DNA from: Pedobacter sp.
Lineage (GTDB): Bacteria > Bacteroidota > Bacteroidia > Sphingobacteriales > Sphingobacteriaceae
Direction: 5' to 3'
Assembly: GCA_965249885.1 (NCBI GenBank)
Contig: OZ252254.1
Location: forward strand, 252,013-316,012
DNA: 64,000 nt
Positions 47,030 to 55,064 of the stretch are shown piece by piece. The notes below the pieces were generated by a model. The model searched no databases. It was not told the origin of the DNA and worked only from the letters and a program-made list of their open reading frames with translations. Made by a program: the position numbers and the translations under genes. Position 1 is the stretch's first letter. Each line of letters starts with the position of its first letter.

Positions 47030-47115
47030 TGGTTGTTTGGTTCATTGGCCATTGGGCATTGGTTCATTGGTTTTTGATTGTTGATTATTGATTATTGATT
47101 GTTGATTGTTGACTA
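47030..47115. repeat. G/T-rich heptamer arrays
   Basis: CATTGGC CATTGGG CATTGGT, then TTGATTG TTGATTA TTGATTA TTGATTG TTGATTG TTGACTA. Confidence 0.85.
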
Positions 47116-47147
47116 GAAAGCAATTTCAGTTTTCCAAACGTTCCTGT

Positions 47148-47248
47148 AGTCCCGCTTTTCGTTGCAATCTTTTTGTCAACGGCAATGCAAAACTTAAGAA
47201 GTTTTCAACCATACTGCTTCAAAAAGTATTTCCACTGCAATCGGGTTT
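47148..47248. repeat. AAACCCGA...GCGGGRCT family element, reverse orientation
   Basis: agtcccgctttt...caatcgggttt termini. Confidence 0.6.
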
Positions 47249-47283
47249 TGAGCACTTCAACCTTTGCACAGCACTTACATTTT

Positions 47284-47534: not shown

Positions 47535-47646
47535 CTAACAACTAACAACTAACCACTAACCACTAATACCTAACAACTGATCCCTAATACCTAACCACTA
47601 ACTCCTAATACCTAACCACTAATACCTAATCCCTTACACCTATCCA
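47535..47646. repeat. C/A-rich heptamer tandem array CTRAYNN (16 units)
   Basis: CTAACAA CTAACAA CTAACCA CTAACCA CTAATAC CTAACAA CTGATCC CTAATAC CTAACCA CTAACTC CTAATAC CTAACCA CTAATAC CTAATCC CTTACAC CTATCCA; 5 more units at 47415-47449. Confidence 0.92.
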
Positions 47647-48873: not shown

Positions 48874-50064
48874 ATGAATATCCACGAATACCAAGGTAAA
48901 CAAATTCTAAAGAGTTTTGGCGTTGCTATCCAAGAAGGCATTGTTGCTGATACAGTTGACCAAGCTGTTGAGGCCGCTAAACAAATGAAAACTGATTTTA
49001 ACTCTGATTGGGTTGTGATTAAAGCACAAATCCATGCTGGAGGTAGAGGAAAAGGTGGCGGTGTGAAGTTGGCCAAAAACTTAGATGAAGTTAAGCAAAG
49101 AGCTACGGATATTTTGGGAATGCAATTGATTACACCTCAAACCGGCCCAGAAGGTAAAAAAGTAAACAAAGTGTTAGTAGCACAAGATGTATACTATCCT
49201 GGTCCTTCTGAAACTAAGGAGTTTTACATGAGCGTACTTTTGGACCGTGCTGCTGGACGCAACATTATCATGTACAGCACTGAGGGTGGTATGGACATTG
49301 AAGAAGTAGCTGAACATACGCCACATTTGATTTTCAAAGAAGAAGTTGATCCTAAAGTTGGTCTTCAAGGTTTCCAAGCTCGTAAAGTTGCTTTTAACTT
49401 AGGCTTAAGCGGTGCTGCTCATAAAGAAATGGTGAAGTTTGTTACTGCTTTATATAAAGCTTATGATCAAACTGACTCATCGATGTTTGAAATCAACCCG
49501 GTTTTAAAAACTAGTGATGATAAAATTATTGCTGTTGATGCCAAAGTAAACTTAGACGAGAATGCTTTGTATCGTCATGCTGATTACGCTGCAATGCGTG
49601 ATGTAACAGAGGAAGATCCAACTGAAGTTGAAGCTGGAAAAAGCAACCTTAACTATGTGAAGCTAGACGGTAACGTAGGCTGTATGGTTAATGGTGCTGG
49701 TTTAGCAATGGCTACAATGGATATCATCAAAATTGCTGGCGGTGAGCCTGCAAACTTCCTTGATGTTGGCGGCACTGCTAACGCAACTACTGTAAAAGCG
49801 GCGTTTAACATCATTTTGCAAGACCCTAACGTAAAAGCAATTTTAATTAACATTTTTGGTGGTATTGTACGTTGCGACAGAGTAGCGCAAGGTGTAATTG
49901 ATGCTTACAAAGAAATTGGTGACATTAGAGTTCCAATTATTGTACGTTTACAAGGCACTAACGCTGAAGAAGCTAAAAAATTAATTGACGAATCAGGATT
50001 GAAAGTTTACTCAGCAATTTTATTGAAAGAAGCAGCTGATTTAGTAACTAAAGTATTGGCATAA
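48874..50064 (+). CDS. sucC: Succinyl-CoA synthetase beta subunit
   Basis: [57 protein letters not shown]. Confidence 0.98.
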
Positions 50065-50084
50065 TCCAAAATTCATATTATTAC

Positions 50085-50114
50085 AAAAACCAGCTGAAAT
50101 CAGCTGGTTTTTTT
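50085..50114 (+). terminator. Intrinsic terminator
   Basis: aaaaaccagctga-aa-tcagctggttttt plus T tail. Confidence 0.85.
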
Positions 50115-50185
50115 TGCGACTTAGTTGCCATGATTAGCTAAAAAGAGCGGATATTAAAACCAATAGTTTTATGTAAATTTAATTC

Positions 50186-50824
50186 ATGAGCCAGTACGAA
50201 GAAACATTTAATACTTGGAACAAGGTTGCGAAAATATATGAAGAAAAGTTCATGCACTTGGATTTGTATAACGAAACTTATGATACTTTCTGTAAAGCTC
50301 TAACTGGAAAGCATGCCAAAATTCTGGAGGTTGGCTGTGGCCCAGGCAATATTGCTAAGTATATACTTAATCAAAACGCAAACTTTGAAATCTTAGGGAT
50401 AGATATTGCTCCAAACATGATTGAACTCGCTAAACAAAACAACCCTAACACAAGGTTTGAGGTAATGGATGCAAGAGCAATTGATCAATTGAAAACAAAA
50501 TTTAACGGAGTTATCGCCGGCTTTTGCATCCCATACCTGTCCTTAAACGAAACTCAACACTTCATTTCAAACAGCCACCAACTGCTTGACGATGACGGTG
50601 TACTTTACATTTCTTTTGTAGAAGGAAAATATTCACGATCTGGTTTTAAAACAAATAGTTCTGGAGATAAAGTTTATTTCTATTATTACGAATTGGCAAC
50701 TATAACCAATGAAATTGAAAAATTAGGCTTTAAGGCGGCGCAAATTTTAAAAGTCAACTTTAAAAGATCAGCTACAGAGATAGAAGAGCATACAATTATT
50801 ATTACCAGAAAATCAAACCGCTAG
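50186..50824 (+). CDS. Class I SAM-dependent methyltransferase
   Basis: ILEVGCGPG motif I, GIDIAPNMI, FEVMDAR. Confidence 0.9.
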   Translation: MSQYEETFNTWNKVAKIYEEKFMHLDLYNETYDTFCKALTGKHAKILEVGCGPGNIAKYILNQNANFEILGIDIAPNMIELAKQNNPNTRFEVMDARAIDQLKTKFNGVIAGFCIPYLSLNETQHFISNSHQLLDDDGVLYISFVEGKYSRSGFKTNSSGDKVYFYYYELATITNEIEKLGFKAAQILKVNFKRSATEIEEHTIIITRKSNR

Positions 50825-50844
50825 TTCCAATTTTATTTAGTAAT

Positions 50845-50961
50845 AAAAAAGCCAATCTAAAAATAGATCGGCTTATATAGGTTGTTTAGGTTTAGTTTAA
50901 ATCTTTTTCTAAGTTCATTTGTTTTATGAAAAAGCTCTGGCCATCCAACCAGAGCTTTAAT
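50845..50961 (-). ncRNA. Candidate orphan sRNA (5' hairpin, A/C-rich body, 3' terminator)
   Basis: TATATTTG at 50967-50974 (minus); 10-bp hairpin 50931-50958; minus-oriented terminator 50845-50874 with no minus-strand CDS to terminate; ends estimated. Confidence 0.45.
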
Positions 50962-51208
50962 CAAACCAAATATAAATGTACTTTTTTGTATGAACACAAC
51001 AAATATATAGCTAATATTTTAATTTTAAAATAAAAATTTAACTTTTTTTACATTTTTTATTTAAAAATTTAATTAAAAATCAAATAAAAACAAAATAAAC
51101 CTAAAAATAGCAACTTTAAACTTATAAAAACATATAAATTCAAATTATTTCTACAAACAGGTTAAAAAAATAGAAAAAAACAGCATAAATTAATGATACA
51201 ATACATAA

Positions 51209-52168
51209 ATGAGTGAAATTAATATAGAAAAACAGATAGAAACTAAAATAAATACAATATTACAACCTATTTTAATAATTTTCGAAAATTCAAAGATCGA
51301 TTTCAACTTTTATATTGCGGAAAACTTAATAACCTTTAAAAAATCCAAAAGTCATTTTCCTCCTATTGATAATGACCAATTAAATTTGAATGAATTATCA
51401 TCGTTTAGTACGCCATTGACCAACAATAGCGAACAGAAACATTATGCAGCCGTAAAATTACCATCAGTGGATAGTGAAGAGACAGGATATTTCGCTATTG
51501 CTAAAAGCGACAATTCTGAGTTTTCGAAAAACGACCTGGCTTTATTAAATGCATTCGTTAGGTTAATTAACGAAACAATAGCTGATTTTGAACAACAGGC
51601 TAAACTCCTTAACATATTGAATGATTTTGTACATAAGTCGGTTCATGATTTAAAAAACCCTCTTACATCTATATCACTTACTTCGGAATTATTGAAAAGA
51701 AAAACGGATGATCCAGCTACGATTATGAAGTTTGCGGGGAAACTGGAAAATGCTAGTAAGCGATTATTTGATAATTTGGACCATTTAAAATCCGTATTCC
51801 CCGTAGATGATAAAAGCTTCAAACTTAATATTAGCCAGGTCGATTTAAATCAGTTGTTAAAAGAAGCAGCTGCAGCTCGCTTTTTAGAATTTGTTTGCAC
51901 TAACGAACAAACACTCATTTATGCAGATGCAGGTCGACTGAGGCACGCTTTTGACTGCTTGATCACTTCAGCAGCTTCCAACAAGGGGCAATTGGTTGTT
52001 TTAGAGACAATAGATGATCAGCTCATTATTAAGCTACCGCACCATGACTTACATCGCCTGCAATTCACTAAATTTCTTATGGCTAAAACCCTGATCGGAA
52101 TGCACAAAGGAACGATTAATATAATTGAAGATGCTTATTATATTTCCCTGCCTTTTGAAACACCATAA
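51209..52168 (+). CDS. Histidine-kinase-like protein with intact H-box and degenerate ATPase domain
   Basis: GAF-like remnant; VHDLKNPLTSI; no recognisable N, G1, F or G2 boxes. Confidence 0.7.
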   Translation: MSEINIEKQIETKINTILQPILIIFENSKIDFNFYIAENLITFKKSKSHFPPIDNDQLNLNELSSFSTPLTNNSEQKHYAAVKLPSVDSEETGYFAIAKSDNSEFSKNDLALLNAFVRLINETIADFEQQAKLLNILNDFVHKSVHDLKNPLTSISLTSELLKRKTDDPATIMKFAGKLENASKRLFDNLDHLKSVFPVDDKSFKLNISQVDLNQLLKEAAAARFLEFVCTNEQTLIYADAGRLRHAFDCLITSAASNKGQLVVLETIDDQLIIKLPHHDLHRLQFTKFLMAKTLIGMHKGTINIIEDAYYISLPFETP

Positions 52169-53493
52169 AGGTTGAACGAGACTACAAAAGTGCTCCCTTG
52201 GACCTTTGGATTGGATTCAAACCAAATCTTTCCATCTTGCAATTCGGTAAATTCTTTGCAGAGTAACAGACCTAGCCCTACTCCTTTTTCGTTATTAGTA
52301 CCAAAAGTGGACAAGGCACGTAGTTTGAACAAACCCTCCTGTTCATGTTCCGGAACGCCAGTACCGTCATCCTTTACCTTGATAAAGCAATTCTCTTGAT
52401 TATGTTCCATCGAAACGGAAACATTCCCCCCGTCGGGCGTAAATTTTATAGCATTATTAACTAAATTACGCACTACGATATGAAACATATTCAGATCAGC
52501 AGCAATAAATATATTATCAACTAAATCCAGATTTAAGCTGATGTTTTTCCTACTGGCGATATTTTTTTCCAAACTTAGGCCACGTTCAAGTTCTCTAGCT
52601 ACATCGACAGCAACAATATCAACCCTAGCGCCATCCATTTGCGATTTAGACCAAGCTAAAACATTGGACAGCATCTCCGACGTGTCTTTGGTAGCCTGTA
52701 ATAACTTTTGCTTAATTTGTTCATTTTCCGACTCGCTTAATTCGGTTTCCGCCAAAACCTCCAAATAACCCAAAATTGAGCTCAACGGAGATCTAATATC
52801 ATGTGCGACAATAGAAAATAGCTTAGCTTTTTCGGAATTCAATTTCTCGAGCTCCTTATTTTGCTGCAAAATACGAAAGCTTTGGGCTTCAATTTCAGCA
52901 TTTTTTTGATTGACAACGTTGCGCTCACGATCGTAATTGTTTCTTATAAAACTAATACTTAAACAAATTAGCAACGCAGCCACACCGTAAGTTACAGCAA
53001 AGTCAATTACCCTGGAAAGCTCATCAACATACGCCGTTTTTATAGCATCAGGTTCAAGGTATTCGAACGCAAGCACTCCAAAAACCGTTGTTATATTTAA
53101 TACAATCCAGAACGCTAACTCTTTTTTAGGAACCACAACTATGGTAACCAGGAGTACCAAGCAAAAAAGCAATAAATTGGGGCCATGTATCCCTGAATTA
53201 AGGAAATAATTGACTAAAAAAGTAAAGTTTGCTGCGATGCCCAAGCTACGCGTAGCTAATTTTGTGCTTCGCCTAACACGTGAAATGTAATAGAGACAAG
53301 CGGCGAAAATAGTCCCGAAAGCACATACGATAGCCACATATTTTAGTCCGATGTAGTAGTTGAAAAAAATCTCGATGAAAAAAGCTACTACTGCGATAGA
53401 ACAAAACGTATTGAATATTCTTTCTTCCAGCGAAAACTTTTTAGGATTACCGATAATGTGATTGGCACTTAGCCACGAACGTAAACTCGCCAC
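52138..53493 (-). CDS. Membrane sensor histidine kinase
   Basis: About 5-6 N-terminal TM helices; AHDIRSPL, RNLVNNAIKF, DDGTGV, GVGLGL. Confidence 0.93.
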   Translation of the reverse strand: MASLRSWLSANHIIGNPKKFSLEERIFNTFCSIAVVAFFIEIFFNYYIGLKYVAIVCAFGTIFAACLYYISRVRRSTKLATRSLGIAANFTFLVNYFLNSGIHGPNLLLFCLVLLVTIVVVPKKELAFWIVLNITTVFGVLAFEYLEPDAIKTAYVDELSRVIDFAVTYGVAALLICLSISFIRNNYDRERNVVNQKNAEIEAQSFRILQQNKELEKLNSEKAKLFSIVAHDIRSPLSSILGYLEVLAETELSESENEQIKQKLLQATKDTSEMLSNVLAWSKSQMDGARVDIVAVDVARELERGLSLEKNIASRKNISLNLDLVDNIFIAADLNMFHIVVRNLVNNAIKFTPDGGNVSVSMEHNQENCFIKVKDDGTGVPEHEQEGLFKLRALSTFGTNNEKGVGLGLLLCKEFTELQDGKIWFESNPKVQGSTFVVSFNLYGVSKGREI

Positions 53494-53627: not shown

Positions 53628-55064
53628 ATGATTAAAAGACAACAAATTAAAGACTTATTAAGATCAACTGACTTCAACACCGAAGTTACTGTAATGGGCT
53701 GGGTAAAAACTTTCCGTAATAATCAGTTTATTGCTTTGAATGATGGATCATGCATGGGTAATATCCAAGTGGTTGTTGATTTTAATAATACCGCCGAAGA
53801 TTTGTTGAAAAGAATAACTACAGGCGCTGCAATAAAAGCAGTAGGTACTTTGGTTGAATCGTTAGGAAAAGGACAAACTGTAGAAATAAAAGCCACTACA
53901 GTGGAAATTTTGGGGGATAGCGATCCAGAAAAATTTCCTCTACAACCTAAAAAACACAGTTTGGAGTTTTTGAGAGAGATTGCGCACTTGCGTTTTAGGA
54001 CAAATACTTTTAACGCCGTGTTCAAGGTACGTCACGCATTAGCTTTCGCGATTCATCAGTTTTACAACGAACGTGGTTTTGTTTACATGCACACGCCCGT
54101 AATTACCGCAAGTGATGCCGAAGGTGCCGGAGAAATGTTTAGAGTAACTACTTTAGATTTCGATAATCCGCCTCGTACTGAAAACGGAGCAGTTGATTTT
54201 AAAGAAGATTTCTTCGGAAAATCAACCAACTTAACAGTTTCTGGACAGTTAGAAGGTGAACTTGCAGCCATGGCGTTTGGCCAGATTTACACTTTTGGAC
54301 CAACTTTTAGAGCCGAAAACTCAAATACCACTCGTCACTTGGCGGAGTTTTGGATGATTGAGCCAGAAGTTGCTTTTGCAGATCTAGAAAATAACATGCA
54401 GCTAGCCGAAGACATGATGAAGTATGTGATCAGCTACGCAAAAGAAAACTGCAAAGAAGAACTGGAATTTTTGAACAGCCGATTGCTAGAGGAAGAAAAA
54501 CAAAAACCGCAAAACGAGCGTAGCGAACTGAGCTTGCTAGAAAAACTTGATTTTTGTTTAGCTAACGATTTCCAGCGCTTAACTTATACTGAAGCAATAG
54601 ACATTTTAAAAGCATCAAAACCTAATCAGAAAAAACAATTTAAGTACCTGATTGATAGCTGGGGTGCCGATCTACAGAGCGAACATGAGCGTTACTTGGT
54701 AGAGAAACACTTTAAACGTCCGGTAATTTTAACCGACTATCCAAAAGACATCAAATCGTTTTACATGCGCTTAAATGATGATGGAAAGACAGTAGCTGCC
54801 ATGGATATTTTATTCCCAGGTATTGGCGAAATGATTGGCGGCTCGCAACGTGAGGAACGTATGGAGGTATTAAAACAGCGTATGGACGAGATGGGAGTAC
54901 CTCAGGACGAACTTTGGTGGTATTTAGATACTCGCCGCTTTGGTTCGGCGCCGCATGCTGGTTTTGGTTTAGGTTTCGAACGTTTGGTACTGTTTGTAAC
55001 AGGAATGACCAACATCCGCGACGTAATCGCTTTCCCTCGTTTTCCTAAAAGCGCTGAGTTTTAA
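53628..55064 (+). CDS. asnS: Asparagine--tRNA ligase
   Basis: OB fold GWVKTFR; LTVSGQLE; FRAENSNTTRHLAEFWMIEPE; PHAGFGLGFER. Confidence 0.98.
   Translation: MIKRQQIKDLLRSTDFNTEVTVMGWVKTFRNNQFIALNDGSCMGNIQVVVDFNNTAEDLLKRITTGAAIKAVGTLVESLGKGQTVEIKATTVEILGDSDPEKFPLQPKKHSLEFLREIAHLRFRTNTFNAVFKVRHALAFAIHQFYNERGFVYMHTPVITASDAEGAGEMFRVTTLDFDNPPRTENGAVDFKEDFFGKSTNLTVSGQLEGELAAMAFGQIYTFGPTFRAENSNTTRHLAEFWMIEPEVAFADLENNMQLAEDMMKYVISYAKENCKEELEFLNSRLLEEEKQKPQNERSELSLLEKLDFCLANDFQRLTYTEAIDILKASKPNQKKQFKYLIDSWGADLQSEHERYLVEKHFKRPVILTDYPKDIKSFYMRLNDDGKTVAAMDILFPGIGEMIGGSQREERMEVLKQRMDEMGVPQDELWWYLDTRRFGSAPHAGFGLGFERLVLFVTGMTNIRDVIAFPRFPKSAEF

Follow-up and report, generated by a model that had tools for sequence, protein, structure and literature searches.

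Between two plus-strand genes of a Pedobacter sp. genome, the minus strand can form two hairpins, the second followed by a run of U residues. This raises the question of whether a separate RNA gene is located here and, if so, where its transcript begins and ends and on what it may act. The locus lies within a 64,000-nt stretch of contig OZ252254.1, hereafter the window. The original prediction had listed two hairpins, a U6 tail, a promoter-like box and an ATG..TAA frame, all of which are present exactly where it placed them, and both flanking genes (50186–50824 and 51209–52168) are indeed on the plus strand. The stretch is a genuine sRNA gene, well bounded and strongly conserved, and it reveals a family with one invariant module in about 190 species. 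To our knowledge, almost nothing is known about RNA-based regulation in Bacteroidota beyond gut Bacteroides, and nothing in Pedobacter. The best overall explanation, to which we assign a probability of about 0.5, is an sRNA gene whose invariant stretch would serve as a seed on the start regions of transporter and carbon-metabolism genes. The features referred to below are the following.

50825–51208: intergenic region, with the minus-strand sRNA gene inside
50186–50824, plus strand: methyltransferase gene, flanking the sRNA gene on the sucC side
51209–52168, plus strand: HisKA-only kinase-like gene, the other flank of the sRNA gene
53628–55064: asnS, beyond two kinase genes
51000–51007, minus strand: likely promoter P1, a −7 box of the Bacteroidota sigma-A type (TATATTTG), the more upstream of two
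50975–50996, minus strand: conserved 5' leader UGUUCAUACAAAAAAGUACAU, 97–100% pairwise identity in 38 species
50959–50976, minus strand: invariant free stretch UUUAUAUUUGGUUUGAUU, the candidate seed, with the family core UUUAUAUUUGGUU
50976–50964, minus strand: family core UUUAUAUUUGGUU, directly 5' of hairpin 1, invariant in 38/38 orthologues and in paralogues
50967–50974, minus strand: second TATATTTG, inside the free stretch, possible promoter P2
50927–50963, minus strand: hairpin 1 with its UGA/UCA extension and UUUUUCAU; its homologue in sibling RNAs is their terminator hairpin
50958–50931, minus strand: stem of hairpin 1, a perfect 10 bp, with the loop UUGGAUGG at 50948–50941
50918–50892, minus strand: mini-ORF MNLEKDLN (ATG..TAA), within a poorly conserved A-rich spacer
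50876–50898, minus strand: C/A-rich motif AAACUAAACCUAAACAACCUAUA of the 3' extension
50845–50874, minus strand: Rho-independent terminator T2 (hairpin 50874–50849, loop UUUU, U6 run)

Conservation, folding and coding potential

The assignment to the minus strand is supported by T2, the 11 pairs of which include one G-U pair that turns into an A-C mismatch on the plus strand, where the U-run (50850–45 on the minus strand) is also absent. G-U pairs of T2 are valid only on the minus strand in relatives as well as in the window. A terminator scan called T2 on this strand alone, in agreement with the original prediction, and found it to be the sole minus-strand terminator-like site in 50000–52500. 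The minus strand of 50840–50962 folds with −33.1 kcal/mol (z = −5.3 against 200 shuffles). Downstream of sucC, at 50088–50115 (plus strand), is a further strong terminator, AAAAACCAGCTGAAATCAGCTGGTTTTTTTT, which is bidirectional; its stem resembles the GACCAG..CTGGTC terminators which end the RNAs of this type (type D) in other species.

A BLAST search of 234 other species of the genus, each represented by one genome, identified the sRNA at the same locus in 38, as a single copy in each. The layout is constant in 40 oriented loci: a kinase-family gene is found upstream, either divergent or on the same strand and ending upstream of the sRNA, while sucC is convergent downstream; in the window and nine others a methyltransferase gene lies between the sRNA and sucC. 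The P1 box TATATTTG is invariant in 37 of the 38 orthologues, the remaining one reading TATGTTTG. Upstream of this box the 38-sequence alignment shows no conservation; the three positions after it (50997–50999) vary, and conservation is back from 50996. The block that begins there and extends to 50927 has a pairwise identity of 97% overall and 99.8% among the 14 closest species. Both this block, 97–100% identical across species, and the copy of TATATTTG at 51007–51000, 33 nt upstream of the box originally noted, had been missed in the original prediction. The remainder of the RNA is less constrained, with identities of 30% overall and 59% in the nearest clade for the spacer after hairpin 1, and of 63% and 81% (close clade) for T2. 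The C/A motif has only 55% identity overall, other clades carrying related words such as CUAACAACCAACC and CUAACCUAAC as its counterparts, but 98% in the 14 closest species, beside the spacer with its 59%.

From the alignment of 38 sequences RNAalifold recovers exactly these two hairpins, with double compensatory changes in 10 of 24 pairs. For hairpin 1, analysed in the core alignment, such changes affect 6 of 13 pairs, and 95.7% of the cells are paired, compared to 33–54% when the partners are slid; several pairs of T2 have double changes across the 38 sequences. The proposal of an orphan gene on the minus strand, specifying a non-coding RNA with two hairpins, has thus stood up. A lack of hairpin conservation in relatives had been named among the results that would count against it, and this objection falls away because both hairpins are conserved, with compensatory changes, in the 38 orthologues. 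In one genome the type D core recurs as a divergent additional copy (locus L067, G157:C84, 1490–1577, minus strand), with a wholly different stem (GUGGCUGCC/GGCAGCC) and a retained UGGAUG loop; it is situated among unrelated genes, with neither a terminator nor a C/A motif nearby.

The possibility of a small peptide, which had also been raised, did not survive the comparison. Between the hairpins, an 8-codon ORF is present in only 3 of the 38 orthologues, 20 have no ATG there, and the others have ORFs of 1–5 codons in other frames. As the ORF is not conserved, the sRNA is non-coding. A 46-aa minus-strand ORF (50857–50997) was also considered and was rejected, being interrupted by indels in relatives.

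Start site and ends of the transcript

In flavobacterial promoters, the TAnnTTTG box covers positions −12 to −5 (PMC9723704). Transcription most likely starts near 50995, about 5 nt past the P1 box, since conservation begins just after this box and its variable 3-nt spacer; a start from the box at 50967–50974, which had been proposed as the promoter, would lie near 50962. The exact box TATATTTG does exist at that position, but it is inside the near-invariant RNA module, and we consider P1 the likelier promoter because in sibling RNAs the same module box is transcribed from far upstream or lies inside the 3' UTR of gap. On balance the upstream start is probable, the downstream one would be the less expected outcome, and the use of both appears less likely again.

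From 50995, the predicted lengths are about 68 nt to the end of hairpin 1 and about 151 nt to T2, compared to about 118 nt from the downstream start. Of the transcript of roughly 115 nt originally proposed, what holds is the non-coding RNA gene, while its 5' end is probably farther upstream and the RNA correspondingly longer on that side. Hairpin 1 is trailed by UUUUUCAU, and in type D about 80 further nt and T2 come after it. Some transcripts would probably stop after hairpin 1, and the remaining ones would read through the C/A-rich stretch to T2 at 50874–50845. A convergent gene lies downstream of the sRNA in the window, as it does in 10 of 11 type D loci. An attenuator, as which hairpin 1 had been considered, or a riboswitch leader, would be followed by a regulated gene on the same strand; as there is no such gene downstream, a leaky terminator giving rise to two isoforms fits better.

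A terminal module common to the genus

A covariance model (R1) was built from the conserved core, together with a simple pattern (TATATTTGGTT, 8–22 nt, TGGATRG). The original prediction had suggested a covariance search for paralogues, and copies of the module were found throughout the genus: 187 of 235 Pedobacter genomes contain the pattern, with 1–5 occurrences each, whereas its reversed control gave 4 matches in total. With a stricter pattern applied to one genome per prokaryotic species (GTDB), essentially all of the matches listed are from Pedobacter, and model R1 found no match in 143 genomes from 36 other genera of the family. The window's own genome has three copies: the one studied here, one downstream of gap and one upstream of a tRNA-Met-like gene.

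The module consists of a UUUAUAUUUGGUU(A/U)GA stretch, a hairpin with a freely varying stem and a YUGGAURG loop, and a U-rich run. It is often preceded by a small hairpin presenting UUCAUAC or CUCAUAA; the former word is included in the 5' leader of the sRNA and is common to sibling RNAs, and both are seen in further module types. The family comprises 67 distinct hairpins, built on 42 stem cores, which form about 10 bp each compared to 5 when arms are swapped; the loop is conserved across the family. With no constraint on the nine bases that separate TCATACAGG from GGTTAGA, these read TTTATATTT in about 147 of the 150 matches listed, from 132 species. The module sits where transcription units end: the preceding gene mostly shares its strand, and the following one is predominantly convergent (57 vs 22 for types A/B, 10 vs 2 for C and 10 vs 1 for D).

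The commonest context is after gap (44 loci), where the module lies either 18 nt or about 530 nt past the stop codon. Copies at the longer distance have a TAnnTTTG promoter of their own, about 100–130 nt before the module, and a structured body that is particular to the subfamily. The TATATTTGG word of sibling RNAs is found inside the transcript or the gap 3' UTR. The same module is the end of the gap mRNA in some species and of a separate sRNA in others, which opens the question of how sRNA genes are born around an existing terminator module.

In type C, a promoter box is followed after 16 nt by the module; the resulting RNA, about 65 nt long, is flanked by a divergent asnS and a convergent sucC. 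Judged by gene order, types C and D are positional orthologues, since type C lies between asnS and sucC and, in the window, asnS is found beyond two kinase genes; type D has gained another leader and a 3' extension, with kinase genes apparently inserted alongside. Set against the sibling RNAs of types A/B, its free stretch reads GGUUUGAUU rather than GGUUAGAAA, its promoter is closer, and it has the 3' extension in addition. Family membership of the sRNA is established, as are its conservation, covariation and strand and the lack of a conserved ORF. In the window, the HisKA-only kinase-like gene and a complete histidine kinase gene (51209–53493) overlap tail to tail and, compared to species with the short type C RNA, this pair looks inserted between the sRNA gene and asnS.

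Several observations concern the sibling copies. The third copy of the window's genome (G000:C1:1416–1658, minus strand; 1416–1560 in locus L073) immediately precedes a weak tRNA-Met(CAU)-like gene, called by ARAGORN and scoring 33.4 bits with the Rfam tRNA model; in P. namyangjuensis (L117), the module hairpin at the tRNA-like copy is devoid of a U-run. In the sibling sRNA downstream of gap (G000:C1:623,400–623,640, plus strand; locus L069, 1400–1570), the promoter box TACATTTG is closely preceded by the palindrome TTAGTGTAC-N4-TACACTAA. In other species, too, several RNAs that carry the module have TACACTAA ahead of their promoters, and this recurrence suggests that module-bearing RNAs may share a regulator.

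Candidate targets, rival explanations and known systems

In the explanation that we favour, of which the point of initiation, the existence of two isoforms, the target mRNAs and the sign of regulation are inferred, RNA polymerase would start near 50995, about 5 nt past the P1 box, and the transcript would pass through the module, that is, the U/G-rich free stretch UUUAUAUUUGGUUUGAUU, the hairpin with its loop UUGGAUGG and a short U-run. The invariant free stretch would be the seed, pairing with A/C-rich translation start regions such as CCAAAUAUAAAUAUG, with mRNAs of SusC-type outer-membrane transporters as prominent targets on which pairing would block initiation, while the conserved loop could be a second contact or a protein handle.

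Predicted pairing was compared between 42 SusC-like genes and the 3581 other genes of the window's own genome. The type A free stretch pairs with SusC starts at a median of −11.9 kcal/mol compared to −9.7 kcal/mol elsewhere (p = 4e-8), and 8 of the 42 SusC-like genes but only 65 of the 3581 others are among its best 2%. For the 13-nt family core UUUAUAUUUGGUU, pairing with SusC-like starts is also better (p = 6e-5; 7/42 in the best 2%), and shuffled seeds have no SusC preference (p > 0.27). The free-stretch variant of type D itself shows a weak enrichment (p = 0.068; 2/42 in the best 2%). The C/A-rich region, for which target prediction had been suggested originally, turned up no candidates of this kind, the C/A motif having no preference for SusC or other start regions in this genome. 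A test of SusC leaders that makes no use of the seed returned CTAACC as the top 6-mer (8/42 vs 52/3581, p = 3e-7), followed by AACCAA and CCAAAT, and all three are complementary to the module. Seed and targets are both low-complexity A/U-rich sequences, which is a caveat. One case is a SusC-like gene of the same genome (G000, 2444410–2447472) with the start region GCCAAAUAUAAAUAUG, in which 13 consecutive pairs with AUUUAUAUUUGGU can span the start codon; this start region is kept in the orthologues of four other type D species, and glpK and an enolase-like gene have similar start regions. In genome-wide scans with the type D free stretch and the C/A motif, strong matches did not exceed the reversed-seed control, a control that is flawed because the core is mirror-symmetric and its reverse is not an independent seed. 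As the signal is significant for the core but weak for the type D variant, SusC targeting by this RNA is a predicted function, and it opens the question of sRNA control of SusC-type transporter genes in soil Bacteroidota.

Other pairing partners were considered. RNAfold predicts a long-range interaction between the free stretch and the C/A motif, which was rejected because it is no better than with shuffled spacers in the 38 orthologues (mean z = −0.3). For rRNA and tRNAs, the complementarity found with the free stretch or with the loop does not leave the shuffled range; the loop resembles the 16S 3' end over 5 nt only, and a search for antisense matches elsewhere in the genome gave nothing beyond short A/T-rich words.

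C/A-rich sequences recur in leaders nearby. Arrays of 7-nt units (CTAACAA, CTAACCA, CTAATAC; CAATCAA) occur in the window at 47535–47646 (plus strand) and 47030–47115 (minus strand), in the leaders of accD and of the divergent gene, and words of the C/A motif resemble these heptamer repeats of the accD and fbaA leaders. The module of sibling RNAs contains the word UGGUUAG, to which the CTAACCA unit is exactly complementary. AACCAAA upstream of genes is fourfold commoner on the sense strand, with a peak 20–6 nt before start codons. The leader of the divergent gene on the fbaA side also contains a Flavo-1 RNA (RF01705, 50.6 bits; 47144–47252, minus strand), although the host is a Pedobacter (Sphingobacteriaceae) and not a flavobacterium. 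In another genome, two frames of 393 and 638 aa (G174:C1:1374496–1377541; L230, L232) together make up the orthologue of this candidate SusC-like target, possibly owing to a frameshift or an assembly error.

The view that there is no separate RNA gene, but a terminator or spacer between convergent genes or the regulatory DNA of the divergent kinase gene, is highly improbable. T2 is bidirectional in many species, where it is common to the sRNA and sucC, and the block does sit upstream of the kinase gene. However, the plus-strand T2 of the window is mismatched (A-C) and lacks a U-run, some 200 nt separate the conserved block from the kinase start, this block persists where the neighbour is asnS or a same-strand kinase gene, hairpin 1 covaries around an asymmetric conserved loop, and paralogous copies exist in unrelated contexts. 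The architecture of the original prediction is a better contender, if an unlikely one: the box at 50967–50974 would be the working promoter of an RNA of about 118 nt (50962–50845), and, equally tentatively, hairpin 1 would be a protective 5' stem-loop and the C/A stretch the seed, with promoter or operator DNA above 50967. It accounts well for TTTATATTTGG being a perfect and invariant Bacteroidota −7 consensus and for the near-complete conservation of the C/A motif in the nearest clade beside a variable spacer; 5' hairpin, free seed and terminator are the classic sRNA layout, and as the tRNA-like copy of L117 has no U-run, the box there could be a promoter. Yet the boxes of siblings lie inside transcripts with structured, covarying bodies, the starts of which are some 100 nt upstream, the same box is also found 18 nt past the gap stop codon, the sharp onset of conservation after the upstream box is the pattern expected for a transcribed region, the C/A motif is without start-region preference, and a start at 50962 would cut off the UGA/UCA pairs which extend hairpin 1.

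The pairing model itself leaves the invariant loop unexplained, and the invariance of 25 nt including a perfect promoter-like box may reflect recognition by a protein or by RNA polymerase instead. A role of the module as a protein handle is a serious alternative, or a complement, to pairing. That it is chiefly a protein-binding 3' handle, the RNA being a platform or sponge for a Pedobacter RNA-binding protein or RNase, we rate slightly below the original architecture; such a protein would bind the invariant free stretch jointly with the YUGGAURG loop, in a manner similar to that of Hfq and ProQ on terminator modules, and the C/A-rich extension, being similar to SusC leaders, could act as a decoy that draws off either sibling RNAs or a factor bound to leaders. 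Some 25 nt and the loop are near-invariant while the stems are free, which exceeds what a pairing seed usually needs; one module terminates unrelated RNAs and an mRNA; the words of the C/A motif (AACTAA, ACCTAA, AACCTA, CCTAAA) are those enriched in SusC leaders; and a genome without a known chaperone has room for a new one. On the other hand, a candidate protein was not found, no gene co-occurs beside the modules, and pairing of the module with its own C/A stretch is at the level expected from composition (mean z = −0.3). Handle and base pairing are mutually compatible. A more far-reaching and rather doubtful extension would make the module a portable handle for a new RNA-binding protein or ribonuclease in a lineage free of Hfq, ProQ, CsrA and RRM proteins, in a genus-wide network linking gap, sucC, glpK and eno with SusC uptake, where the C/A tail would mimic SusC leaders and so titrate siblings; the handle would be the 25-nt free stretch, which copies the sigma-A −7 box, together with the hairpin and its fixed YUGGAURG loop. 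Seed pairing at start regions remains the explanation we favour.

In the genome, which is 99.9% complete, no match was found to PF17209, PF04352 or PF02599, and hence neither Hfq nor ProQ/FinO nor CsrA; nor was there a match to PF00076 (RRM), for which the B. thetaiotaomicron control was positive. A CsrA-type reading of the GGA in the loop is ruled out, as csrA is absent. What binds the conserved loop in an organism devoid of every known sRNA chaperone is a question that this locus opens. A guide RNA of the dCas12f type (PMC13472631) was also considered, and the architecture gives no support to it, as a guide would be expected to be 3'-terminal and variable, beside a dcas12f locus.

No Rfam family reaches its gathering score in the sRNA region. 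The best match below threshold is VqmR (RF02834; 29.6 bits vs a gathering score of 76; E = 0.0016 in a 601-nt search), which is similar in length, in its layout of hairpin, free stretch and terminator and in its divergent orientation from a regulator gene. However, VqmR is a Vibrio family with no sequence in common, so that the likeness is one of shape only.

The Hfq-binding module of enterobacterial sRNAs comprises a terminator hairpin, its U-tail and an upstream A/U-rich stretch. Like it, the Pedobacter module is a portable 3' unit with an A/U-rich free stretch before a terminator hairpin and U-run, and both are common to otherwise unrelated sRNAs and 3' UTRs. They differ in that the Pedobacter genome is without hfq and its module is conserved in sequence and not in form alone, and, in type D, in the 80 further nt and the second terminator which come after the module.

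We found no publication on this RNA. It is uncatalogued and, in kind, can be compared to bacterial trans-acting sRNAs, conceptually near GibS and FopS of B. thetaiotaomicron. These likewise belong to the Bacteroidota, a phylum without Hfq or ProQ, and act in trans around the start codons of SusC/PUL uptake and metabolic mRNAs (PMC7366714, PMC11697453). FopS, like the module RNAs of Pedobacter, is a multi-copy paralogous family, but its partner is the RRM protein RbpB (PMC11697453, PMC7366714), and the Pedobacter genome has no RRM gene. There is no known sequence relation to GibS or FopS, genus and class differ, and for the Pedobacter sRNA the regulation of SusC is a prediction. What the Pedobacter sRNAs have in common, in comparison, is an invariant free stretch and a terminator hairpin with a conserved loop, and by its sequence this terminal module, invariant and shared across the genus, is the unusual trait of the RNA.
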